In this document: in pieces, positions 7,079-26,221 of the stretch | Layout of the letters: every line of letters begins with the position of its first letter | How positions within the stretch are numbered: the stretch's first letter is position 1 | NCBI GenBank assembly: GCA_033856415.1 | Contig: JAWVFA010000045.1 | Coordinates: forward strand, 33,162 to 97,161 | Length of the DNA stretch: 64,000 bases | Reading direction: 5' to 3' | From: Solirubrobacterales bacterium | GTDB lineage: Bacteria; Actinomycetota; Thermoleophilia; Solirubrobacterales; 70-9 | Made by a program: the position numbers and the translations under genes | Notes under the pieces: generated by a model | Told to the model about the DNA's origin: nothing | The model's input: the letters and a program-made list of their open reading frames with translations, nothing else | Database searches by the model: none

Positions 7079-8443
7079 TCAGCCGTCAAGGTCGGTGAAC
7101 AGCTGGAGCCAATCGCGCAGCAGGCGCGGGGTGAGGAACATCCGCCGGGCGTGCTCCTTGCCCTCCCGACCGAGCTGCTTGCCCAGGCCAGGGTCGCGGA
7201 GGATCTCCAGGCAGCGCTCCGCGCACTGCGTGGGTGAGTTGACGAGGTAACCGCTGACTCCATCCTCGATCTGCAGCGGAATGCCGCCGACGTTGCCGGC
7301 CACGGTCGGCCGGCCCTTCCAGAGCGCCTCGGTGACGGTCAGGCCGAAGCCCTCGCGGATCGACTTCTGCAGGCAGATGTCCGACTGCGACTGGAAGGCG
7401 TTGACCTCGATCGCGCCGACGTTGTTGAGGTTGCTGAGGATTTTGATGTCCTCGTCGCCATCGGCGTATTCGAAGGTCTTCTGAAAGTACTCCATGCCCT
7501 CGGGGTCGTCGGTGGCCATCGAGCCGACCATCGCCAGCTGCGTCGCCGGCGCCTGCTCGGTGACCTCGCGGTAAGCGTCGATGACGCCGATCGGATCCTT
7601 CCAGGGGTCGAAGCGGGAGACCTGGGTGATCAGGGGCCGGTCGACGTCGATCCCGAACTGGCGGCAGACGAAGGCCGCGTCCTCGGGCGAGAAAGCCATG
7701 TTCTTCGGCGAGAGCGGGTCGATCGCCGGCGGCACGATCCGCACCTCCTCGCGGTGCTTGCCCATCCCGTCGGGAACGTACTTCTCCATGTGCCAGACGC
7801 TGGCGTCGTACTCTTCGATCATCGGCAGCAGGCGCGCGATCGGCGCCGGGTTCGGCGTCGAGAGGTCGATGTGGCAGCGCCAGACCCACTTGTCGCCCTT
7901 CGCCTTCGCGCCGCGGAGCAGGCCGATCGGCTGCGGGTCGTGGACGATCACCACGTCCCACTCGCCCTGCAGGCCCTCGGCGTTGATCTGGTTGATCTCG
8001 TCGAAGATCTCCCACTGCTCGTCGCTCAGCGTCTCCTCGGCGCCCTGCAGCGAGTTGTGAAGGAGCTTGGTCGCGTTGTAGAACTCTTCTTTGCCGAAGA
8101 TCACGTGCCAGTGCGCGTCGACGCCGACGTCGCGCATCAGCGGCACCAGCGTGTAGAGGATCTCTGAGACGCCGCCGCCGAAAGCGGTGGCGCTGACGTG
8201 CAGCACCCGCTTCCCCTTCAGGGGCTCCGCGAGCTGGCGGATCTGCTCCGTCAGGTCTTTGCCGACGATGTGGGTGTAGTCGGCGAGGGTCTTGTGGCCG
8301 AGGGCGACTTCCTGAAGCAAGGCTGGAGTTCTACACCGATAGGCGGCGACACGGCGTCCAGCCGCCGCGTTGCGTCTAGTTGGACGGCGGGTTGTCGGGC
8401 CGCTTGCCGAGGGTGACCTCGACCTGCTGGCGCTCGTTGTCAC
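7079..8443 (-). CDS. treT: GT4 glycosyltransferase, TreT-like trehalose synthase
   Basis: HVSATAFGGGVSEILYTLVPLMRDVGVDAHWHVIFGKEEFYNATKLLHNSLQG closely resembles the archaeal/bacterial TreT N-terminus as I recall it. The C-terminal part has the GT-B fold. The start is uncertain: the annotated start overlaps the htrA 3' end by 68 nt, and a TTG at 8320 is an alternative. Confidence 0.65.
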   Translation of the reverse strand: MTTSASRSRSPSASGPTTRRPTRRNAAAGRRVAAYRCRTPALLQEVALGHKTLADYTHIVGKDLTEQIRQLAEPLKGKRVLHVSATAFGGGVSEILYTLVPLMRDVGVDAHWHVIFGKEEFYNATKLLHNSLQGAEETLSDEQWEIFDEINQINAEGLQGEWDVVIVHDPQPIGLLRGAKAKGDKWVWRCHIDLSTPNPAPIARLLPMIEEYDASVWHMEKYVPDGMGKHREEVRIVPPAIDPLSPKNMAFSPEDAAFVCRQFGIDVDRPLITQVSRFDPWKDPIGVIDAYREVTEQAPATQLAMVGSMATDDPEGMEYFQKTFEYADGDEDIKILSNLNNVGAIEVNAFQSQSDICLQKSIREGFGLTVTEALWKGRPTVAGNVGGIPLQIEDGVSGYLVNSPTQCAERCLEILRDPGLGKQLGREGKEHARRMFLTPRLLRDWLQLFTDLDG

Positions 8444-17455: not shown

Positions 17456-18161
17456 GGAGAGCAACCTAGCCACCGCGCCTGTCGAAGCGGCCGCCGGGCG
17501 AGATTTTCCGCCGTCTAACTGGGGGCCTTCGGGGGCGCTGCTGGGCGCAGTGCTGGCCATTGTCGTCGGCCTCATCCTCGGCCTGCCGGCGATCGCCTTC
17601 ACCGATTCGGCGGGTGATCTGACGACCGCCGGCAACGTGATTGCCCAGGTCGGCCTCGTCCTCGGCCTCCTCGGGGTGCCGCTCGCGGTTGCCCACTCTC
17701 GCGGGGCGCGCACGCTGGCGGAGTGTCTGTGGAGATTGGGGGTGCAGCCGTTCCGGCCCTCGGCCCTGAAGTGGATGGCCGCATCCGTGGGCGCCTATCT
17801 CGCTTTCGCGTTCGCCTACTCCGTTCTCATCCTCGAACCCGAACAGGAAGACATCGCCGAAAGCTTCGGGCCGATTCCGATTCAGGTCCTGCTGGTTGTC
17901 CTCGGCGCCGCGATCGCCGAGGAGATCTGTTTCCGCGGGATGCTCTTTGGCGGTCTGCGCGAGCGCCTGCCGAAGGTTCCGGCGGCCCTGATCGCTGGCA
18001 CGGTGTTCGGCCTCCTGCATGCCTTCACCGGCCTCAGCGCGGTGCCGCCGCTGATCGGCTTCGGCTTTGTCTTATGCCTGCTCTACGAGAAAACCGGCTC
18101 GATCGTCCCGGGGATGCTGTTGCACGCCCTGAACAACTCTGTCGCCCTCCTCGCTCAGTAG
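17454..18161 (+). CDS. CPBP (CAAX/Abi) family intramembrane metalloprotease
   Basis: Motifs EEICFRG, FGLLH and HALNN are present. The start could be the ATG at 17454 or the ATG at 17403. Confidence 0.8.
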   Translation: MESNLATAPVEAAAGRDFPPSNWGPSGALLGAVLAIVVGLILGLPAIAFTDSAGDLTTAGNVIAQVGLVLGLLGVPLAVAHSRGARTLAECLWRLGVQPFRPSALKWMAASVGAYLAFAFAYSVLILEPEQEDIAESFGPIPIQVLLVVLGAAIAEEICFRGMLFGGLRERLPKVPAALIAGTVFGLLHAFTGLSAVPPLIGFGFVLCLLYEKTGSIVPGMLLHALNNSVALLAQ

Positions 18162-18171
18162 GATTCCGCGC

Positions 18172-19134
18172 GTGAATCGCCACCTCGTGTCCCTGCTCGC
18201 AGTCGCCTGCGCCTTCATGCTGCCGGCGACCGCGGTCGCTGCCCCGAAGCCGAAGCCCGCGCCGACCCCGGTTCCCGAGGCGACGGTGAAGGTCAAGGTC
18301 GGAAACTTGAAGAAGGGCCGCGCCGAAATCATGCAGACGGTTCCCGTCAGCGGGACTCTCGCGCCCTTCGTCGCCGGCGAGAAGGTCAAAGTCACCTTCT
18401 ACCTCGACGGGAAGATCATCTTCAGCCGCAACCTGTCGGTGCGGAAGTCCGGTGGCAAGGGCGTCTTCAAGACCAGCATCGAGGTGCGCGAGGACGGTAA
18501 GTACGCCGTCGCCGCCAAGCATGTGGCGACGCCCGACCTGGGTCCCGACAGCACCGTCCGCAAGAGCTGGAAGGTGAGCTACCCGGCGCTGCACCAGGGC
18601 CAATGCGGCGACGTCGTCGTCGGCTTCAAGAAGGCGATGCGGAAGATGGGCTACATAGCCAACGACGGCCGCTGCTTCGGCGGCAAGACCGCGCGTGGCG
18701 TCCTCGCCTACCGCAAAGTCAACGACATGACCCGAAGCATGCGGGCCGGTGCCGGACTGGTGAAGAAAGCCTTCGCCGGCAAGGGCGGCTACGAGGTTCG
18801 CCATCCGGGCGCCGGCGAGCATGTCGAGGCCCCGCTCTCCAAGCAGGTCCTGGTCTTCGCCAAGGGCGACAAGGCTTTCGCCATCTACCCGATCTCCTCC
18901 GGCAAGTACTCGACCCCCACCGTCACCGGCCACTACGAGTTCATCCGCCAGGAACCGGGCTACAACTCGCACGGGATGTACTACTCGTTCTACTTCTACG
19001 GCGGCTACGCCGTCCACGGCTACGAATCGGTGCCGGACTACCCGGCAAGCCATGGCTGCCTGCGGACCTTCATCGCCGACCAGCCCGAGATCTACAATCG
19101 CATCTTCTTCGGCGAGGACATCTTCATCTGGTGA
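18172..19134 (+). CDS. L,D-transpeptidase (YkuD) with peptidoglycan-binding domain
   Basis: Signal peptide, a PG_binding-like segment (GDVVVGFKKAMRKMGY), and the YkuD catalytic motif HGY...SHGCLR. Confidence 0.85.
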   Translation: MNRHLVSLLAVACAFMLPATAVAAPKPKPAPTPVPEATVKVKVGNLKKGRAEIMQTVPVSGTLAPFVAGEKVKVTFYLDGKIIFSRNLSVRKSGGKGVFKTSIEVREDGKYAVAAKHVATPDLGPDSTVRKSWKVSYPALHQGQCGDVVVGFKKAMRKMGYIANDGRCFGGKTARGVLAYRKVNDMTRSMRAGAGLVKKAFAGKGGYEVRHPGAGEHVEAPLSKQVLVFAKGDKAFAIYPISSGKYSTPTVTGHYEFIRQEPGYNSHGMYYSFYFYGGYAVHGYESVPDYPASHGCLRTFIADQPEIYNRIFFGEDIFIW

Positions 19135-19700
19135 GTGCGGATCTGGCTGGCGCCAAGGCGACGCTGCTTTCGGAGTTGAAGGAGCACTCGCTGATCCTTG
19201 GGGAAGTCACGCTTGCCAGTGGGGCTGTCGCTCAGTACTACGTCGACGCGCGCCGGACTTTGATGCGGCCCGCTGCGTTTCGGGCGACTGGGGAGTTGAT
19301 CGCCGCGGCGGCTAGGGAGCTTGGGGCCGAGGCGGTCGGCGGTCCCGCAACCGCGGCGATTCCGCCGGCATGTGCAGCGATCGCGGTTCCCGCAGGGCAG
19401 GACCTGGTCGCGTTCTTCGTCCGCGGGTCGCGCAAGGAGCATGGGTTGCAGAGGTGGGTCGAGGGACCCGTCGAAGCCGGGACCCGCTGCCTCGTCGTCG
19501 AGGACACGGTGACCACCGGCGGCTCTACCGCGACCGCGATCGAGCGAGTCCGGGAAGAGGGGCTCGCGGTTGCCGGCGTCGTCGCTGTCGTCGACCGGCT
19601 GGCCGGCGGCGCCGCGAAGATCGAAGCGGCCGCGGACGCCCCGTACCGGGCGTTGGTGACGATCGACGAGATCTATCCGGACCGCCCCGACCGCGGCTGA
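19131..19700 (+). CDS. pyrE: Orotate phosphoribosyltransferase
   Basis: TLASGAVAQYYVD plus the PRPP-binding loop CLVVEDTVTTGGS. The GTG start overlaps the upstream stop (GTGA). Confidence 0.88.
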   Translation: MSADLAGAKATLLSELKEHSLILGEVTLASGAVAQYYVDARRTLMRPAAFRATGELIAAAARELGAEAVGGPATAAIPPACAAIAVPAGQDLVAFFVRGSRKEHGLQRWVEGPVEAGTRCLVVEDTVTTGGSTATAIERVREEGLAVAGVVAVVDRLAGGAAKIEAAADAPYRALVTIDEIYPDRPDRG

Positions 19701-20182
19701 TGGACCCGGACGGCGCCGAGATCCGCGTCGTCGGCTGCCTGGTCGAGAAGCAGAAGACGACGCCCGACGCTTACCCGCTCTCGCTCAATGCGTTGCGGCT
19801 CGCCTGCAACCAGTCGACCAACCGCGACCCGGTTGTCGCCTATGACGAGGAGACGGTCAGCGCCGCGCTTCGCCGGCTCGCACAGCGCGGCTGGACCCGC
19901 CTAGCCAGCGGCGCCGGCAGCCGCGCCCGCAAGTACCGACACCTGCTGCCCGAGGCGCTGGACCTGAAGGACGGGGAATTGGCGCTGCTCGCGGTGCTGA
20001 TGCTGCGCGGGTCGCAGACGCCGGGAGAGCTGAAGCAGCGCAGCGAGCGCCTGCACGGCTTCGGAGATCTCGCGACTGTGCAGGAGACTCTGGAGCGACT
20101 GCTCGGGCGCGAACTGGTCATCCGCCAACCGCGGCGCCCAGGACAGAAGGAGGCGCGCTACGAGCAGGTGCTCGGCGGCTAG
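19700..20182 (+). CDS. DUF480 / YceH-family protein
   Basis: VVGCLVEKQKTTPDAYPLSLNALRLACNQSTNRDPV is the characteristic YceH N-terminus. The ATG overlaps the pyrE stop (TGATG). Confidence 0.75.
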   Translation: MDPDGAEIRVVGCLVEKQKTTPDAYPLSLNALRLACNQSTNRDPVVAYDEETVSAALRRLAQRGWTRLASGAGSRARKYRHLLPEALDLKDGELALLAVLMLRGSQTPGELKQRSERLHGFGDLATVQETLERLLGRELVIRQPRRPGQKEARYEQVLGG

Positions 20183-21942
20183 CTGCGGATCCCGAGGACG
20201 GCGATCCGCCGGCCGCCGGGGATCGCCACCACGACGTGAGTCTTCAGCCAGCCACGTTGGCGCAGCAGGGTGCGGCCGCCGGCGCTGAGCGGGACCCGAT
20301 AGGTGTGGGCTTGGCCACCGGTGAGGCGGAAGGGGATACGACCGATCATCCGTTGCACCGGCCGGGTGCGAGCCCCGGTCCGGGAGTGGTTGACGATCCG
20401 GAAGCGCGAGCGAAGGACGATCTGGCCTGGACAGTCGGTCCCCGCCGGCCAGAGGCAGGCGACCCGCACCCGCACCTTGTTGGCATCCGCTTTGAGGTTG
20501 GAGAGCCGCAGCGCGACCGGGATCGTCGCCCCCTTGCAGCCGAGCAGGCGGTCTTCGCCGGAGGCGATGTTGAGCGCGTAGGCGCAGACCCGCTGTCGGC
20601 CGGACTTGATCGTCGGCAGGCTGAGGTCGAAGCCGTGGCGGGAACCTGCTTCGGGGAATTCCTGGGCGACGTCGCGGCGGGAGCGCGTGGCGACGGTGCC
20701 GAGCTCATAGATGGCGACCCCCGGCGTGTCCACCTTGCCGCCGACCGAGAGGCGGATCGCCAGCGGTTCGGTGGGAGCGTTGGGGTCGAAGGCCCAGCCG
20801 CGGACGCGGACCTGTCCCGGCGCGGGCGACTGCGCGAGGTCGAGGTAGCCGACCGGGTTGTCGCCCGCGACCAGGGTGGCGGAGCCCACCGTCTCGCCGT
20901 CGACGTAGTTGTTGTCGATGTTGATCGTGATCCCGCCGTAGGTCTCGTTGTGGCCGCCGCGGTACTGGTGGATGCGCCGGTGTGGGCTCCAGGCGCTCGC
21001 CGGCACCACCGGGTCGGCGGTGTTCTGCTGGCCGTTCCAGTTGGCAATCCAGAGGTCGTCGGGGAGGACGTAGCCGGTGCCGATCTGGCCGGCCAGGTCC
21101 TCGATCCCCGAAGCGCTGCTGCTGTAGACGCCGGAGACGTAGCCGAGCGCGTGCAGCTTTTCGGTCCAGGCCTCGAGGAAGGCGAGAGTCGCCGCGGTGG
21201 CGCTCGAGGTCTGACTGTAGGACTCCATGTCGAAGTAGATCGGGCTGCCGGGACCCATCGCGACCGCGCCCGCTTCTTCGACCGCGTCGACTGCCGCTGC
21301 GACACCCTGCGCGGTCGCCTGGCTGGTGGTCAGCTTGGCGCAGCTGGAGCAGGCGCTGGTCGGCGCCTGCAGCCCGACGTAGGTTGGGATCAGGTGCCAG
21401 CCGGCTTCGGTCTGCGCGGCCACCCAGTCCGCCGTCAGGTTCGGCTGCGAGCAGGCCCGGTTGACGCCGCCGATGTAGACGCCGACGGCGCGGTAGGGCG
21501 AGTCCTCCCAGGCAGCCATCGAGCGCGACGAAGGCGCCGTGCAGGCATCGAAGCCAAGGCCGGTGAAGACCGATCCGCCGGCGGAAGCCGTGGCGCGCCG
21601 CGCCAGCGGGGGCAGGGCGGAGGCGCCAGCGGCTTGGGGTTCGACGAGTATCGCCCGCTGCCGCCCGATCGCCTCGGCGGGGCAGCGCTGCTGCGAGGAA
21701 GGCGTGCCTAGGTACACGGCCCGGCGATCGAGCCGCACGCAAATTTGCGGGTCGTCGGCAAGGCGAAAGACGGGCCAGCCCGTGGGCACGCGCACAGCGC
21801 GGCCGTCGAAGTGGACGGTGCGCGCCGCAGCTCCCGTCGCCAGCGCGCCGCAGAGCATTAGCGTCGCGAGCAGGGCAGCCAGCCCCACCGCGACCGGGAA
21901 GGTCGGGCGGCGGATCACGATCAGCACTCTCGGTAAAACCAC
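20179..21942 (-). CDS. Secreted protein with a DUF1906 (Rv2525c-like glycoside-hydrolase-like) domain plus uncharacterised C-terminal domains
   Basis: Signal peptide. GLGFDACTAPSSRSMAAW...YRAVGVYIGG...GWHLIPTYVGLQAP matches DUF1906 as I recall it. Confidence 0.6.
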   Translation of the reverse strand: MVLPRVLIVIRRPTFPVAVGLAALLATLMLCGALATGAAARTVHFDGRAVRVPTGWPVFRLADDPQICVRLDRRAVYLGTPSSQQRCPAEAIGRQRAILVEPQAAGASALPPLARRATASAGGSVFTGLGFDACTAPSSRSMAAWEDSPYRAVGVYIGGVNRACSQPNLTADWVAAQTEAGWHLIPTYVGLQAPTSACSSCAKLTTSQATAQGVAAAVDAVEEAGAVAMGPGSPIYFDMESYSQTSSATAATLAFLEAWTEKLHALGYVSGVYSSSASGIEDLAGQIGTGYVLPDDLWIANWNGQQNTADPVVPASAWSPHRRIHQYRGGHNETYGGITINIDNNYVDGETVGSATLVAGDNPVGYLDLAQSPAPGQVRVRGWAFDPNAPTEPLAIRLSVGGKVDTPGVAIYELGTVATRSRRDVAQEFPEAGSRHGFDLSLPTIKSGRQRVCAYALNIASGEDRLLGCKGATIPVALRLSNLKADANKVRVRVACLWPAGTDCPGQIVLRSRFRIVNHSRTGARTRPVQRMIGRIPFRLTGGQAHTYRVPLSAGGRTLLRQRGWLKTHVVVAIPGGRRIAVLGIRS

Positions 21943-21996
21943 CCCGGCCGGTCAAAAGTCGCGGCCCCGCGGGCAAAACCCTGCAGTCTCGGCGAG

Positions 21997-22040
21997 TGCC
22001 CCGAGCTGGATTCGAACCAGCGGCCTATCCCTTAGGAGGG
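21997..22040. repeat. Partial tRNA-Arg copy (3' 44 nt); att-type direct repeat
   Basis: TGCCCCGAGCTGGATTCGAACCAGCGGCCTATCCCTTAGGAGGG is identical to 25368..25411, which spans the anticodon loop to the 3' end of the intact tRNA. Confidence 0.9.
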
Positions 22041-22202
22041 AGTGTTTGTCAAGCCCCCTGCTTGGCTTAAACGCGGGGTTTCGGCTTGAACCTTCGGTTT
22101 CGCAGGAGGACAGGAGCGGACCCTTGGGGACTCGAGCGGGCAAATCTGTCCCCACCCTCGTCCCTACCAGTCAGCCGCGAATCATGGCGGCAGGGGGTGG
22201 CG

Positions 22203-23153
22203 CTAGTCCTCGAGCTCGGACGCGCGCATCCGCAGCCATTTGTCGAAGTCGGGGTCCTCGAGCATCTCGCTGGGTAGCTTCCGATCCTGGACGAAACGGC
22301 TCTTGAACCTCGCATACAGACCAGCCGCGTCGGTCACGCCTTCCCGCTTCGCCCGATCGTTAGCGACCCCGATGATTCCTCCGAAGCTCTGCTGGATGCT
22401 TTGGACGCTGAGGTTGGGCGTTGCATGGCGTTCCGCCAACTCGCGTAGCACCTCTCTCGCATCTCCCGCGACCGCCGAAATAGTCCCCTCTGCCGTTCGG
22501 AAGCTCCACCAAGTGATCGTCCTGGTGCCCATTTGCACTTTCTCCACTTGACTCGCGAACCGATCCAACCGTTCACGGCGCAGCTTCTCTCCTCTTTTTG
22601 GAACTTCACTGGAGGTGAGATCGGACTGCCCACTGATCAGAACCTCCCCGGCAGGGTCGGTGACCGCGTAAACATGTCCACCAGGCAGAGCCTCTGCGAG
22701 CCGAAAGCAGGCGACCCAGGTCGAGACCCCGGCTGCCAGTACCGCCTTGGTCAGAGGACCCATTTGATCATCTGAGCGAGCCGTCACTAGATCCCTCAAC
22801 CAAGCTCCGGGAACGAGCAGCTCTGCGGCAAATCGATTGGCCTCAGGCTCGTCTGCCCGGGCGGACCAATCCCCTTCGTGCGTATCGCAGACGAAGTTTC
22901 CGATGTGCCATGGCAGCAGTATGTGCCCCAACTCGTGAGCGAGCGTGAATCGCTGACGAGTCTCGTGCTGAGTGTCGTCGATCAGAACCAGCGGCCGCCG
23001 TCGGTCCAACCCCACGACCAAGCCGTCGCACTGCGTCGGGATATTGTCGACCTCAACCTCGGCGAACTCCCGTGCAAGTCCCCAAACGTCGACCGGCGGG
23101 TTAAGGGCGTACTTGTTGACCAGCCGCTCCGCGGCCTTTGCCTCTCGTCTCAA
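22203..23153 (-). CDS. ImmA/IrrE-family (DUF955, COG2856) Zn-metallopeptidase fused to a ~180-aa unknown C-terminal domain
   Basis: HELGH (HEXXH) followed by EPEANRFAAELLVP, the standard ImmA/IrrE motif pair. The TTG start overlaps the upstream stop (TTGA). Confidence 0.8.
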   Translation of the reverse strand: MRREAKAAERLVNKYALNPPVDVWGLAREFAEVEVDNIPTQCDGLVVGLDRRRPLVLIDDTQHETRQRFTLAHELGHILLPWHIGNFVCDTHEGDWSARADEPEANRFAAELLVPGAWLRDLVTARSDDQMGPLTKAVLAAGVSTWVACFRLAEALPGGHVYAVTDPAGEVLISGQSDLTSSEVPKRGEKLRRERLDRFASQVEKVQMGTRTITWWSFRTAEGTISAVAGDAREVLRELAERHATPNLSVQSIQQSFGGIIGVANDRAKREGVTDAAGLYARFKSRFVQDRKLPSEMLEDPDFDKWLRMRASELED

Positions 23154-23476
23154 TCGGCTTGAAGGCGTCCGGTGCGCTGCAACCAGCGCCGCACCTTCTC
23201 GGCCTCCTGCTGGCCGAGCCCACGCGCTGCCACAAGCTGCTCGTCGGAGCGCTGGATCAAGTTCTCGACCGGTTCATCGAGCTCATGCGCCGCAAGGATG
23301 AACCGCAAAGAGGTCGGCTGCTCCACGTAGAGGTCGTACTCCCCCCGGGTCATCCCAAGGAAATCCGCGATCGACGTCTCTGACGATTCAGAGCTGTGCC
23401 AGTGCTCTATGTAGTCCTCGATCTCGGTCCAGAGCGCATCTCCGGAGAGGACATCTTGAACGTAGTTCTCAGACAT
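23150..23476 (-). CDS. Acidic 108-aa protein; candidate immunity/antitoxin partner, possibly HTH-like
   Basis: A strong SD (GGGAGG) lies 7 nt upstream of the ATG. The ATG sits inside the last codons of the toxin gene (ATGTCTGA overlap). The protein is rich in Asp and Glu. I recognise no family. Confidence 0.6.
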   Translation of the reverse strand: MSENYVQDVLSGDALWTEIEDYIEHWHSSESSETSIADFLGMTRGEYDLYVEQPTSLRFILAAHELDEPVENLIQRSDEQLVAARGLGQQEAEKVRRWLQRTGRLQAD

Positions 23477-23657
23477 CGATTCGCCTCCCTTTAACGGGAT
23501 CTTTCTCCTTCACGCCGGTGGTCGCATTGAGCGTGCCGAGATGCCAGCCGCGCCGATCGTAGACCTCGATCTCGCCATGAAGCTCGTCCCACTCGTAGTA
23601 GCGGTCGCCGTCCTCGTTGCGCCAGCGCTGTACGCCGCGACGCGAGACCTTGACCAT
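23469..23657 (-). CDS. Stand-alone colicin-E3-like cytotoxic rRNase domain protein (62 aa from the ATG; 92 aa if the TTG at 23747 is used)
   Basis: RWRNEDGDRYYEWDELHGEIEVYDRRGWHLGTLNATTGVKEKDPVKGRRI aligns with the colicin E3 C-terminus RWTGDKGRKIYEWDSQHGELEGYRASDGQHLGSFDPKTGNQLKGPDPKRNI (recalled from memory). The Asp/His/Glu residues of the YEWD-xx-HGE motif are conserved. Confidence 0.7.
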   Translation of the reverse strand: MVKVSRRGVQRWRNEDGDRYYEWDELHGEIEVYDRRGWHLGTLNATTGVKEKDPVKGRRIDV

Positions 23658-23706
23658 CTGATCGAGAAAGCAGGGACTTGGACGCGGCACGGACGGCAGC
23701 GTAACC

Positions 23707-23736
23707 TTGCATGTCTTTTTGAGTCCCAAACATAAT
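23707..23736 (+). promoter_or_regulatory. Candidate sigma-70-type promoter for the 23750 ORF
   Basis: TTGCAT, 18-nt spacer, CATAAT, ending 13 nt before the ATG, inside a locally AT-rich divergent intergenic region. CATAAT...ATTATG also forms a 6-bp inverted repeat here. Confidence 0.35.
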
Positions 23737-23749
23737 CTAAGACGCAATT

Positions 23750-24274
23750 ATGAACATAGATCCAGACAGTATTCGTCTTGTTGGCGAGGCGGACCTCCTT
23801 GAGCTCGCGCATGTTGGCCGGGGCGCATGGAACGGCTGGATCAAGAATGGCCACGTCAGCCCTTCCGCGACCGGTCTGTATGCAGAGCACGACGTGATCC
23901 AAGTCACCGTGCTCAAGCTCCTCGGCGACTCGCTGCCGATGTCGAAGGCGGCGATTGCCTGGCGAGACTGTGAAGCCGCCGTGATTCAGTGCTGTGCCAA
24001 CCGGGGGCTCGAGGATGAGGATCCCGTCGATCTAGTGGTCGATCTTCAAACGCTCGCCGCCCATCTCGCTGAGGGATCCAGGGACCTTTTCAACAAGATC
24101 CACCGTCCCGTTCCGGGTCCGCGCGGACACCTAGTCATACCCCTGTCGGCAGTCGTGCAGGAGGCACGGGCCAGCTTCTGGCGACGGGCGCGACCGGCAT
24201 CGGATTTCGCCACCGACAAGCGCCGCAAGCCCGCTGCCCGCCGCAGTTCTGCCGGCGCTCCCCGCCGCGCTTGA
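23750..24274 (+). CDS. Hypothetical protein (possible excisionase/MerR-like N-terminal HTH, basic tail)
   Basis: 174-aa ORF with an ATG start, divergent from the toxin operon. The N-terminal LVGEADLLELAHVGRGAWNGWIKNGHV looks HTH-like; this is a weak call. Confidence 0.5.
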   Translation: MNIDPDSIRLVGEADLLELAHVGRGAWNGWIKNGHVSPSATGLYAEHDVIQVTVLKLLGDSLPMSKAAIAWRDCEAAVIQCCANRGLEDEDPVDLVVDLQTLAAHLAEGSRDLFNKIHRPVPGPRGHLVIPLSAVVQEARASFWRRARPASDFATDKRRKPAARRSSAGAPRRA

Positions 24275-24382
24275 TTTCCTCGACCAACTCGGACTAGAAG
24301 CGACGATCAACGTCGTAGCGCCACACGCTGAGTCCGCGCATGCCAACCCGCTACGTCCTCTTCTGTTCCTACGGTTCTTTAA

Positions 24383-25231
24383 GTGCAGCGTAAAGATCTG
24401 ATCGTCGGTGAGCAGTACCTCGTCGTGCGTGGTCACCGCACGCGACGAGTGACCCTGCTCGATAAAGAATCAGCAGCGATAACCCCTGGATATGTCGAAG
24501 TCGAATTTCGTGAAGGAGCTAAGGCGGGAGAAAAGGCGCAGGTGTTTTGCGGCTCTATAAACCCGCTGCCAGGCAAGGTCTCCGCGGCTCGCAAGCGACC
24601 CCCGAAAAAGGCAAAGCGGGCACTTTGGCTCATCGCCCCCGATGATTGGGAGCCACGGCCGGGCGAGACTGTGACGTGGAGCAAAACCGGCGATATCCGC
24701 CTTGATGTGCTCACCTACGACTCCGCCGCCAAAGTGGCAGTAGTCCAGGGCAGAATTTTCGGTGTCCTGGAGGAGTACCAGGCTCCTCGAATCGAGTTGG
24801 CTCCCGTCGTGCGGCAACAAGAGAGCTTCGAGGGTGAGGGAGACGCGGCAGAAGAACAGTACGAGGAGGATTTGGTCGCGGATCCTGCACCCCGAGAGCC
24901 TGCCGGGGTCGTGGCGATCAAGCACGACGATCTCATCGATCGTCTGACCTTCTCGCCGAAATGCATCGATTTCTATCGACGCCGCTTCGCGAAGGGCGTC
25001 TCTATGGCTGAGGCTGATCGCCGACTCCGACGTGAGTTGTGCGAAGCGGAGATGGTCAGGCCGAGGGCGACCGGTGATTACCTTCGATTTCGCCGGCGCG
25101 GGCGCTTTGACGTGATCCTCAAAAAACGGCCGGTGGTGGAGGATCCCTCAACCACCTACATCACTTCGCTTTATCTGCCCACGCATAGGGCCAGGTCCAA
25201 GCGGGCGAAGAAGACGAAGCAGGCCGCTTAG
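24383..25231 (+). CDS. Hypothetical protein, 282 aa, no recognisable family
   Basis: GTG start. Contains basic patches (KRPPKKAKR and the C-terminal RSKRAKKTKQAA). It is followed by a hairpin terminator. Confidence 0.5.
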   Translation: MQRKDLIVGEQYLVVRGHRTRRVTLLDKESAAITPGYVEVEFREGAKAGEKAQVFCGSINPLPGKVSAARKRPPKKAKRALWLIAPDDWEPRPGETVTWSKTGDIRLDVLTYDSAAKVAVVQGRIFGVLEEYQAPRIELAPVVRQQESFEGEGDAAEEQYEEDLVADPAPREPAGVVAIKHDDLIDRLTFSPKCIDFYRRRFAKGVSMAEADRRLRRELCEAEMVRPRATGDYLRFRRRGRFDVILKKRPVVEDPSTTYITSLYLPTHRARSKRAKKTKQAA

Positions 25232-25240
25232 AAGTCGAGA

Positions 25241-25273
25241 GGACTGAAGGAGCCACCTTCAGTCCTTCGTTCG
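25241..25273 (+). terminator. Hairpin terminator after the 24383 ORF
   Basis: GGACTGAAGG-agcca-CCTTCAGTCC followed by TTCGTTCGG. Confidence 0.45.
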
Positions 25274-25367
25274 GTAGAGCTACCCCTGTGACGCATCGAG
25301 CCAAGGTAGGGACAGAAGTGTCGAAGTCGGGGAGGCGGCTATTTGGCTCTGCGAGCAGTTCTGAAAA

Positions 25368-25441
25368 TGCCCCGAGCTGGATTCGAACCAGCGGCCTATC
25401 CCTTAGGAGGGGATCGCTCTATCCATCTGAGCTATCGGGGC
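25368..25441 (-). tRNA. tRNA-Arg (anticodon CCT)
   Basis: The reverse complement is GCCCCGATAGCTCAGATGGATAGAGCGATCCCCTCCTAAGGGATAGGCCGCTGGTTCGAATCCAGCTCGGGGCA. It forms a full cloverleaf with a 7-bp acceptor stem and a GTTCGAATC T-loop. CCA is not encoded. Confidence 0.95.
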
Positions 25442-25597
25442 GGGAGTTGAATTCTCGCTTAGTTGGCCAAGGCTTGTCGAAGTTGGCCCGAAGTGCGCGC
25501 CACGGGTGCGGCCTGGCCCGGCAGGATCGCTTGCATGAAGACTGCAGAGGTATTCGACATGTCCGCAACACGGGATAATGTGCTGCACATGTCCAAG

Positions 25598-25822
25598 ATG
25601 ATTCAGATCAGGAACGTGCCCGACGACCTGCATCGGGCACTGAAGATGCGGGCGGCGGCGGCGGGGATGAGCATGTCCGACTACATCAAGCGCGAGCTCG
25701 ATCTGCGGACCCGCAAGTCGACGATCCGGGAGATCGCCGCGAGAAGGGACGCGCGAGGGAGTAAGTCGACCGGCACCACTCAGCAGACGGTCGACATCAT
25801 CCGCGAAGCGCGAGGTGACTGA
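25598..25822 (+). CDS. vapB: VapB/FitA-like antitoxin (ribbon-helix-helix type)
   Basis: MIQIRNVPDDLHRALKMRAAAAGMSMSDYIKREL is a typical FitA/VapB-type N-terminus. The gene lies directly upstream of a PIN gene. An alternative start is at 25589. Confidence 0.75.
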   Translation: MIQIRNVPDDLHRALKMRAAAAGMSMSDYIKRELDLRTRKSTIREIAARRDARGSKSTGTTQQTVDIIREARGD

Positions 25823-26221
25823 ATGGCGGTCGTCGACGCTTCCGTGGTGGTCGAGTTCCTCGGTGGGGATGAGCACACGCTTGCACTCGATCAGCGATTG
25901 GAGGCCGAAGAACACATCCTCTGGGCTCCGCATCTGATCGACGCCGAGGTTGGGCATGCCCTGCGCCGCAAGGTGCGTTTGGGGCAGATGGATGCCGAGA
26001 CCGCGGCGGAGGCCCTCTGGGAGATCAACGAGCTGCCGCTGCGTCGCATCGAGCACGAACATCTGGTCCACATCGCCTGGGACCTGCGCGACAACTTCAG
26101 CTTCTATGACAGCCTCTACATCGCCCTTGCCCTGGTGCTCGGCGAACCGCTGCTCACCTTCGACGCGCGGCTGGCGCGTTCGGGCGTCGACGTCCCCGTC
26201 GAGGTCCTCGGTCAGGCGTAG
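25823..26221 (+). CDS. vapC: PIN-domain ribonuclease toxin VapC
   Basis: MAVVDASVVVEFL (Asp5)...FYDSLYIALA...LLTFDARL are the conserved PIN acidic residues. The ATG immediately follows the vapB stop. Confidence 0.85.
   Translation: MAVVDASVVVEFLGGDEHTLALDQRLEAEEHILWAPHLIDAEVGHALRRKVRLGQMDAETAAEALWEINELPLRRIEHEHLVHIAWDLRDNFSFYDSLYIALALVLGEPLLTFDARLARSGVDVPVEVLGQA

Follow-up and report, generated by a model that had tools for sequence, protein, structure and literature searches.

We analyzed a 64,000-nucleotide stretch of DNA from a Solirubrobacterales bacterium (GenBank assembly GCA_033856415.1, contig JAWVFA010000045.1, positions 33,162 to 97,161 of the forward strand), which is called the window below; positions are counted from its first nucleotide unless another sequence is named. 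A previous reading, made from the sequence without database searches, had singled out a minus-strand open reading frame (ORF), 23469..23747, as a stand-alone version of the ribosomal RNA ribonuclease (rRNase) domain of colicin E3 (ColE3). This ORF, with the C-terminal peptide quoted in that sequence-only reading, is present in the window and contains the first gene of a three-gene cassette on the minus strand. The toxin gene (23469..23690) codes for a 73-amino-acid (aa) ColE3-type rRNase domain, gene 2 (23150..23476) for a 108-aa acidic, all-alpha protein that is a candidate antitoxin, and gene 3 (22203..23153) for a 316-aa zinc metalloprotease of the M78 (IrrE/ImmA/CapP-like) type. The overlapping partner gene, the protease gene and the island, borne by a transfer RNA (tRNA) gene, in which the cassette lies had been missed by the sequence-only reading.

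A stand-alone ColE3-type rRNase domain

The ORF matched Pfam family PF09000 ('Cytotoxic', the ColE3 rRNase domain) with 47.1 bits and E=3.2e-12, the curated cutoff of this family being 22 bits; by sequence, positions 30-79 of the 80-position profile were covered. When PDB sequences were searched with phmmer, only ColE3 chains were found (1e44_B, 4udm_B, 4v5k_AY, 1jch_A and 2b5u_A; E=2e-7 to 6e-6), and the alignment spanned ColE3 residues 496 to 546. The ColE3 C-terminal sequence given in the sequence-only reading was correct when compared with these chains. An AlphaFold2 model of the 73-aa protein, for which an alignment of 26 homologues was used as input, consisted of one short helix and six strands and had a predicted local distance difference test score (pLDDT) of 95.2 and a predicted template modeling score (pTM) of 0.82. 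Foldseek matched this model to five ColE3 rRNase entries in the PDB (probability 1.00, template modeling scores of 0.64-0.72) and gave no other significant match there, the next one being at E=0.7 or worse. The alignment comprised 82 columns against the 96-aa E3 domain, and the N-terminal 20 residues of the toxin are a stretch specific to its own family. Both profile and structure comparisons therefore bear out the proposed assignment: the ORF codes for a genuine relative of the ColE3 rRNase domain, with a similarity far beyond chance. A PADLOC match of the toxin to NsnC (E=0.0017) was too weak and was not used.

Toxin residues D35, H38, E42 and R69 (in the 73-aa numbering, which is used throughout) align with D510, H513, E517 and R545 of ColE3, which we take, from PMC3482391 and the general ColE3 literature, to be its catalytic residues. 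It had been suggested previously that the catalytic Asp, His and Glu are kept, and all three are indeed present; of the two Glu residues in HGEIE, however, it is the second (E42) that corresponds to ColE3 E517, and not that of 'HGE'. Among the approximately 150 representatives from a profile search with the toxin, the Asp is conserved in 147 of 151, the His in 147 of 150, the Glu in 147 of 149 and the Arg in 139 of 149. ColE3 cuts 16S rRNA between A1493 and G1494. By analogy, the 73-aa protein would also cleave rRNA, and its target is presumably the same site in the decoding center. In addition, toxin H50 aligns with a second His that is conserved throughout the fold according to Zhang et al. 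(PMC3482391), and this column is occupied by His in 140 of 146 representatives.

Short stand-alone proteins of the E3 type are a large family already present in databases. The profile search, run against 1.84 billion cluster representatives, yielded 1570 matches at E<=1e-3; the 415 clusters at E<=1e-10 were mostly of 48-130 aa and came from many phyla. Of the best 150 representatives, 124 were no longer than 135 aa, and a handful of long proteins (e.g., 1877, 1078 and 709 aa) carried the domain at the C-terminus. A motif scan with one genome per species detected the toxin motif in 156 genomes, including those of Actinomycetota, Planctomycetota, Verrucomicrobiota, Pseudomonadota, Bacillota, Bacteroidota, Cyanobacteria and Spirochaetia. 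From species-representative genomes, 80 related loci were drawn, and in all of them, across at least 8 phyla, the toxin was stand-alone, with in-frame stop codons bounding a short ORF (92 codons from stop to stop in the window and 75-253 in the related loci, except for a truncated copy of 40 codons in locus L069). The sequence-only reading was thus right that the domain stands alone and has no delivery part. Its statement that known members form the C-terminus of large secreted colicins or polymorphic toxins applies to the characterized members, but not to the hundreds of short PF09000 proteins in the databases.

The top-scoring representative in the profile search (P0152, 2081 aa) contained 29 repeated matches to toxin-profile positions 17-37, which correspond to the R-W-R..D-G..L-Y-E-W-D hairpin; probably, this protein is made of repeats rather than being a toxin. 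Other short PF09000 proteins were found with different partners, for example on a Bosea sp. plasmid (L086, NZ_AP022849.1, 2794-3410) and on Bacillus plasmids (H5-H20); these plasmid matches belong to other PF09000 subfamilies. One such protein has 121 aa and a full-length Pfam match and is followed by an 84-aa hypothetical protein, and another such lineage is the Bacillus 'SAR2788 family putative toxin'. This suggests that there are several independent lineages of stand-alone E3 proteins.

The start of the toxin gene was set by alignment of homologues. Conservation in the family alignment begins at P-R-P-S-P-C-F-L-D (PRPSPCFLDQ), on the upstream side of ATG 23657; in the 80 loci, the conserved part includes zero to four residues ahead of this motif. 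Thirty close database relatives had lengths of 61-143 aa, mostly 73-78 aa, and PF09000 was detected in 30/30. Because a start at ATG 23657 would leave out the conserved motif and homologues mostly have 73-78 aa, the GTG codon at 23690-23688, located exactly at the beginning of conservation, is most likely the start, which gives a 73-aa product ending at the TGA stop at 23471-23469. ATG 23657 and TTG 23747, between which the sequence-only reading had hesitated, are both unlikely in view of the family alignment. The gene is truncated or extended by gene callers, and the lengths called by different programs or in relatives were 62, 73, 86, 90 and 92 aa. The public JGI call on this contig has 62 aa, beginning at ATG 23657, and drops the conserved N-terminal 11 residues. 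NCBI already uses the label 'colicin E3/pyocin S6 family cytotoxin' for short proteins of this kind, among them one of the close relatives, from a Solirubrobacterales bacterium. Such disagreement on length, together with a weak ribosome-binding signal, might be taken to mean that the ORF is a non-functional remnant or was mis-called. We regard this as highly improbable given the strong conservation across phyla, the near-invariant catalytic residues, the high-confidence predicted fold and the conserved operon structure.

The partner gene and the protease gene

The ATG of gene 2 and the stop codon of the toxin gene overlap by 8 nt, which was the commonest arrangement (41 of the 75 loci for which overlaps were counted). 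The Shine-Dalgarno (SD) sequence of gene 2, AAGGGAGG (23484..23491, minus strand, read from the sequence), is located 7 nt before this ATG and is made by the conserved K-G-R codons, AAA-GGG-AGG, which are the last codons of the toxin. As judged from the overlap and this strong embedded SD, gene 2 is translationally coupled to the toxin. In 78 of the 80 related loci, the toxin gene is directly followed by a gene 2 homologue detected by phmmer. The gene 2 protein has a predicted isoelectric point of 4.4 (family median 4.6) and is thus acidic, in contrast with the basic core of the toxin, for which the family median is 9.4.

No match to the gene 2 protein was found in Pfam, NCBIfam or PADLOC, and a Pfam screen of 42 diverse members of the family also gave none. 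A profile search detected 410 proteins, and every named one was a 'hypothetical protein'. Gene 2 thus represents a previously unannotated protein family with at least 410 database members. Its AlphaFold2 model (pLDDT 80, pTM 0.70) is all-alpha, with 8 helices arranged as a confident domain (residues 1-70), a low-confidence linker (71-90) and a C-terminal helix; three invariant or near-invariant residues, A83-A84-R85, are located within this linker. No significant match to PDB sequences was found, and there was no fold match in the PDB or BFVD. A DNA-binding helix-turn-helix (HTH) in gene 2 was considered and is unsupported, as only sub-threshold matches to HHH_2, AntA and MerR-DNA-bind were obtained, each in 1-3 of the 42 members. 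At the nucleotide level, an imperfect 24-nt palindrome (75% complementary) lies within the 5' end of gene 2 (23425-23462).

The same searches bear on the kind of partner that gene 2 encodes. No immunity gene of the Imm-Cloacin (Im3) or Imm45 type was found at this position, the partner being all-alpha and without a Pfam match in the 42 members, and an Im3-like immunity function was rejected for lack of Pfam, NCBIfam, PADLOC, PDB sequence and fold matches. This is relevant to the idea that the cassette is an orphan part of a bacteriocin or polymorphic toxin. In that case, a toxin tip that has become displaced together with its immunity gene would be retained so that it can recombine into a large secreted toxin, or would be exported by an unrecognized route, and would be aimed at competitors instead of acting in cis. 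All characterized PF09000 members are delivered toxins (PMC9990079; PMC3482391), stand-alone toxin cassettes are known from polymorphic toxin loci (PMC3482391), and the few long proteins of 1877, 1078 and 709 aa do have the domain at their C-terminus. However, none of the 80 loci had an Rhs-, CdiA- or LXG-sized ORF that ended at the toxin or was situated shortly before it, and with no such giant ORF upstream we rejected an orphan tip as the principal explanation. Moreover, the N-terminus and the start position are conserved within the family and are peculiar to it, the partner belongs to no detected immunity family, many loci lie beside housekeeping genes, and the association with M78 proteases and prophage immunity regions described below is typical of toxin-antitoxin (TA) and defense modules. 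An orphan tip is thus very unlikely.

Gene 3 has a TTG start, which overlaps the stop codon of gene 2 by 4 nt. The protein matched Pfam Peptidase_M78 (E=6e-15) and has HELGH at residues 73-77, whereas its C-terminal half had no family assignment. Its best PADLOC match was capP (E=1e-25); the RmrA models of PADLOC also matched (E 1e-8 to 1e-10), but only in the protease core, approximately residues 41-126. Among PDB sequences, it was similar to IrrE (3dte, 9e-8) and CapP (7t5t, 6e-5). No HTH family was detected by Pfam in either gene 2 or the M78 protein, and gene 2 had no significant HTH fold match.

In 54 of the 76 loci with enough sequence for this count, an M78 gene immediately follows gene 2, often with overlapping codons, and these loci belong to distant phyla. 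The other 22 loci have the toxin and gene 2 alone, followed by unrelated housekeeping genes (e.g., trpS and hisS); therefore, this pair is the minimal unit. Forms of gene 2 that lack the C-terminal tail (73-93 aa) occurred only where M78 was absent (0/54 vs 7/21, Fisher p=6e-5, in a test that ignores phylogeny).

These counts are informative with regard to two other ways in which the genes could be wired. First, the M78 protein might itself be the antitoxin or sensor, as RmrA is in RosmerTA systems, with gene 2 as an accessory adaptor or transcription factor. Consistent with this, the RmrA models match the M78 protein, antitoxins with an ImmA domain have been validated in RosmerTA (PMC10440598), and an HTH-like stretch in gene 2, L..FLGMT..EY.LWV, could be a degenerate DNA-binding motif. 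The RmrA matches are nevertheless confined to the protease core and are exceeded by capP, no HTH is fused to the M78 protein, the 22 loci keep the toxin and gene 2 without M78 beside housekeeping genes, and no locus was seen with the toxin and M78 but without gene 2, except for the atypical L078. Such wiring is quite unlikely in our view. Second, the toxin and gene 2 might be a plain two-gene addiction module of the island, with M78 as an unrelated neighbor or an ImmA-like regulator of excision. An island without an integrase would profit from post-segregational killing, and ImmA-type proteases classically regulate mobile elements (PMC2701414). Yet M78 stays right after gene 2 in most loci and in phages while the remaining neighborhood varies, and the C-terminal tail of gene 2 co-varies with the presence of M78, so that we consider this arrangement unlikely too.

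The tRNA-Arg island and the phage cassettes

The cassette is carried by a low-GC island (22041..25367), an insertion of ~3.37 kb at the 3' end of tRNA-Arg(CCT) (25368..25441, minus strand; detected by ARAGORN and by Rfam, tRNA, 70 bits), which is the integration target. The island is bounded by a perfect 44-nt direct repeat. Its distal copy (21997..22040) is a duplicated 3' part of the tRNA gene, and the second copy (25368-25411) is formed by the 3' 44 nt of tRNA-Arg itself; only these two copies are present in the window, and none was found in shuffled sequences. The GC content is 58-63% between the repeats and about 70-72% in the flanks. Relatives with empty sites were also found: two metagenome contigs (L087 and L088) align to window positions 17988-22040 and then continue directly at 25368. 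In this search, a first pattern had no match and a shorter flank matched three contigs. The empty sites prove the insertion.

Two further island genes are on the plus strand. One of them, p174 (23750..24274, 174 aa), is divergent from the toxin gene, 59 nt from its start, and is part of the minimal island. It is conserved upstream of the toxin in four related loci (L001-L004, E about 1e-49) and in L083, and searches of Pfam, NCBIfam, PADLOC, PHROGs and PDB gave no match to it; a role in the regulation or mobility of the island is possible. The other, p282 (24383..25231, 282 aa), adjoins the tRNA and had no homologue in any family or structure library searched. In the close relative L083, identical repeats surround a 2.53-kb island with only p174, the toxin, gene 2 and M78, so that p282 is absent from an otherwise identical island. 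A related toxin-gene 2-M78 cassette was detected in a Solirubrobacterales metagenome-assembled genome (L002), where it lies in a 6.45-kb island with a perfect 44-nt repeat of the 3' end of tRNA-Val (1296-1339 and 7747-7790); the four other ORFs of this island (360, 450, 267 and 205 aa) had no Pfam match. No integrase was recognizable in any of these islands. A promoter and terminator scan of the window island gave nothing above the shuffled expectation, and the Rfam scan detected only the tRNA. Across the tRNA from the island, a gene for a FitA-like ribbon-helix-helix antitoxin (25463-25822, plus strand) and a gene for a PIN-domain toxin (25823-26221, plus strand) form a VapBC-like pair. This pair is found in occupied and empty-site relatives alike and is therefore outside the island.

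Full-length homologues were also detected in the Gordonia phages Phabuloso, LitninMcQueen and Kamaru and in one gut phage contig. In Phabuloso (L085, ON526981.1, 2713-4538), the triad gp52-gp51-gp50 is located between the immunity repressor and the integrase and, as in LitninMcQueen and Kamaru, has the same three families, the same order and the same 8-nt overlap as the cassette in the window. The phage toxin gp52 (168 aa) contains PF09000 at residues 113-166 (E=4.8e-13), preceded by an extra N-terminal domain of ~110 aa. Its partner gp51 (284 aa) begins with the gene 2 N-terminal domain (hhalign 99.2%, E=2.5e-19, columns 1-69) and has an extra C-terminal region of ~215 aa, whereas the protease gp50, which matched M78 weakly, has only 140 aa. 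The depositors describe gp52 and gp51 as a TA pair, 'HicA-like' and 'HicB-like', labels that were not reproduced by Pfam or PDB sequence searches; should these labels hold, both the toxin and its antitoxin would be doubled. The unit retained in the phage is the E3 domain plus the ~70-aa N-terminal domain of gene 2, and because just these two are kept, the N-terminal domain appears to be the toxin-specific neutralizer.

A proposed protease-gated module and its relation to known systems

Two features of type II TA systems are seen here: the toxin gene and gene 2 are small, adjacent, co-directional and overlapping genes conserved as a pair, and their distribution is patchy and on mobile DNA (the tRNA-Arg island with its empty sites, the tRNA-Val island and the phage triads). 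The sequence-only reading had proposed a TA-like toxin that acts in cis. The gene context is indeed TA-like, and the toxin would in that case act on the ribosomes of its own cell. We think it probable that the three genes form a TA-like module whose rRNase is set free, probably by the protease, when the cell is stressed or attacked by a phage. In this model, gene 1 supplies a minimal cytoplasmic enzyme of 73 aa that has the fold and the active site of the ColE3 rRNase, and the N-terminal domain of gene 2 (~70 aa) would bind and neutralize it; the pairing of a basic with an acidic protein and the depositors' annotation of the phage pair support this indirectly. By analogy with IrrE-DdrO, ImmA-ImmR and CapP-CapH, the M78 protease would then cleave gene 2 upon stress (e.g., damage to DNA or infection by a phage), and the cut would probably fall in the flexible linker that holds the conserved A-A-R and precedes the C-terminal helix. 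Proteases of the ImmA, IrrE and CapP type are known to cut a small partner protein upon a stress signal (PMC2701414; PMC10440598). The freed rRNase would lead to arrest of translation and growth or to abortive infection, and the cassette may also stabilize its integrase-less tRNA-Arg island. The benefit may lie in abortive infection, in addiction to the island or in both; restriction-modification or GmrSD genes adjoin some loci, and these neighbors, together with the prophage location, weakly favor a role in defense.

Several observations weigh against this proposal. The PF09000 match is limited to profile positions 30-79, and substrate specificity might differ from that of ColE3. The sole SD-like element of the toxin gene (AAGG) is weak and lies 14 nt upstream of the GTG, and the toxin start therefore rests on homology only. 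Gene 2 had no detectable HTH or other known protease-substrate domain in Pfam searches of the 42 members or in PDB sequence and fold searches. The protease is missing in ~29% of loci and is therefore not essential to the module, and the statistic for the association between the gene 2 tail and M78 takes no account of phylogeny. Finally, the PF09000 proteins with demonstrated activity (see below) may lie outside the short subfamily.

It is possible to go further and to view the cassette as a protease-gated suicide system, in which an IrrE/CapP-like metalloprotease that detects DNA damage or phage infection cuts a new all-alpha antitoxin and a minimal ColE3-type rRNase attacks the ribosomes of its own cell, and which resides in 2.5-6.5-kb integrase-less tRNA mini-islands and in the immunity regions of temperate actinophages. 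We offer this full scenario tentatively. ColE3-type rRNases are textbook weapons against competitors. If the scenario is true, an E3 enzyme trimmed to 73 residues is widely used inside cells as a TA or defense effector. In addition, gene 2 defines an unannotated candidate antitoxin family for which there is no Pfam or NCBIfam model, and the three proteins would be a tractable system for testing whether proteases of the IrrE/ImmA/CapP type gate a toxin directly and not via a repressor. If the toxin does cleave rRNA, the cassettes would also be a natural origin, within the cell itself, of the kind of ribosome damage that RtcB2-PrfH repairs.

We found no paper on an E3-type TA or defense system or on the gene 2 partner family in the searchable literature, which is incomplete and does not extend to subscription journals, and the three-gene cassette is apparently widespread and undescribed. 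The closest known relatives of the toxin are ColE3, cloacin DF13 and pyocin S6 with Im3 (PF09000; Tox-ColE3, Zhang et al. 2012), with which it shares the fold, the catalytic Asp, His, Glu and Arg and the second His. Unlike these proteins, however, the toxin in the window has no translocation, receptor or secretion-associated domains. In length, it falls ~20 residues short of the E3 domain (96 aa), and its N-terminus, P-x-P-x-P-[CS]-F-L-D, is peculiar to it. Its all-alpha partner is unrelated to Im3 (Imm-Cloacin) or Imm45, and the module is chromosomal or phage-borne in both Gram-positive and Gram-negative phyla. Tian et al. (2022, PMC9304027) expressed four 'E3L' proteins, PF09000 members remote from ColE3, in the cytoplasm of E. 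coli, where they proved toxic and cleaved 16S rRNA at the position cut by ColE3; these were used as tools, and their gene context was not described.

With regard to the protease, a three-component system of a COG2856 protease, an antitoxin and a toxin was predicted by Makarova et al. in 2009 (PMC2701414), and ImmA-domain proteins act as antitoxins in the RosmerTA systems (PMC10440598). RosmerTA (RmrT/RmrA) and COG2856 TA systems resemble the cassette in that a toxin is in an operon with a protease of the ImmA/IrrE family, commonly with the toxin first and in prophage or defense contexts. In the cassette, however, the protease stands by itself as a third protein, no Xre HTH, which defines the COG2856/Rosmer antitoxin, is fused to it, and the roles are split over two proteins; the middle component is a new, non-Xre family, and the toxin is of the ColE3 type and not RelE, PIN or membrane-active. 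Similarly, CapP-CapH, IrrE-DdrO and ImmA-ImmR have a homologous protease core and a small partner encoded alongside. The known substrates of CapP, IrrE and ImmA are HTH repressors that control transcription, whereas the partner in the cassette has no detectable HTH and is predicted to be co-translated with the toxin, which implies that it would neutralize the toxin directly. There is also no divergent CapH-type HTH repressor, the partner being inside the operon downstream of the toxin. As regards the proposed outcome, the cassette resembles RelE1 of M. tuberculosis and RelS-RelI, chromosomal TA systems whose toxins inactivate ribosomes by cutting 16S rRNA (PMC12620021, PMC13284704); these have RelE/BECR, RNase T1-like folds and cut at the anti-SD site, whereas the toxin described here has the ColE3 fold and presumably acts at the decoding center.

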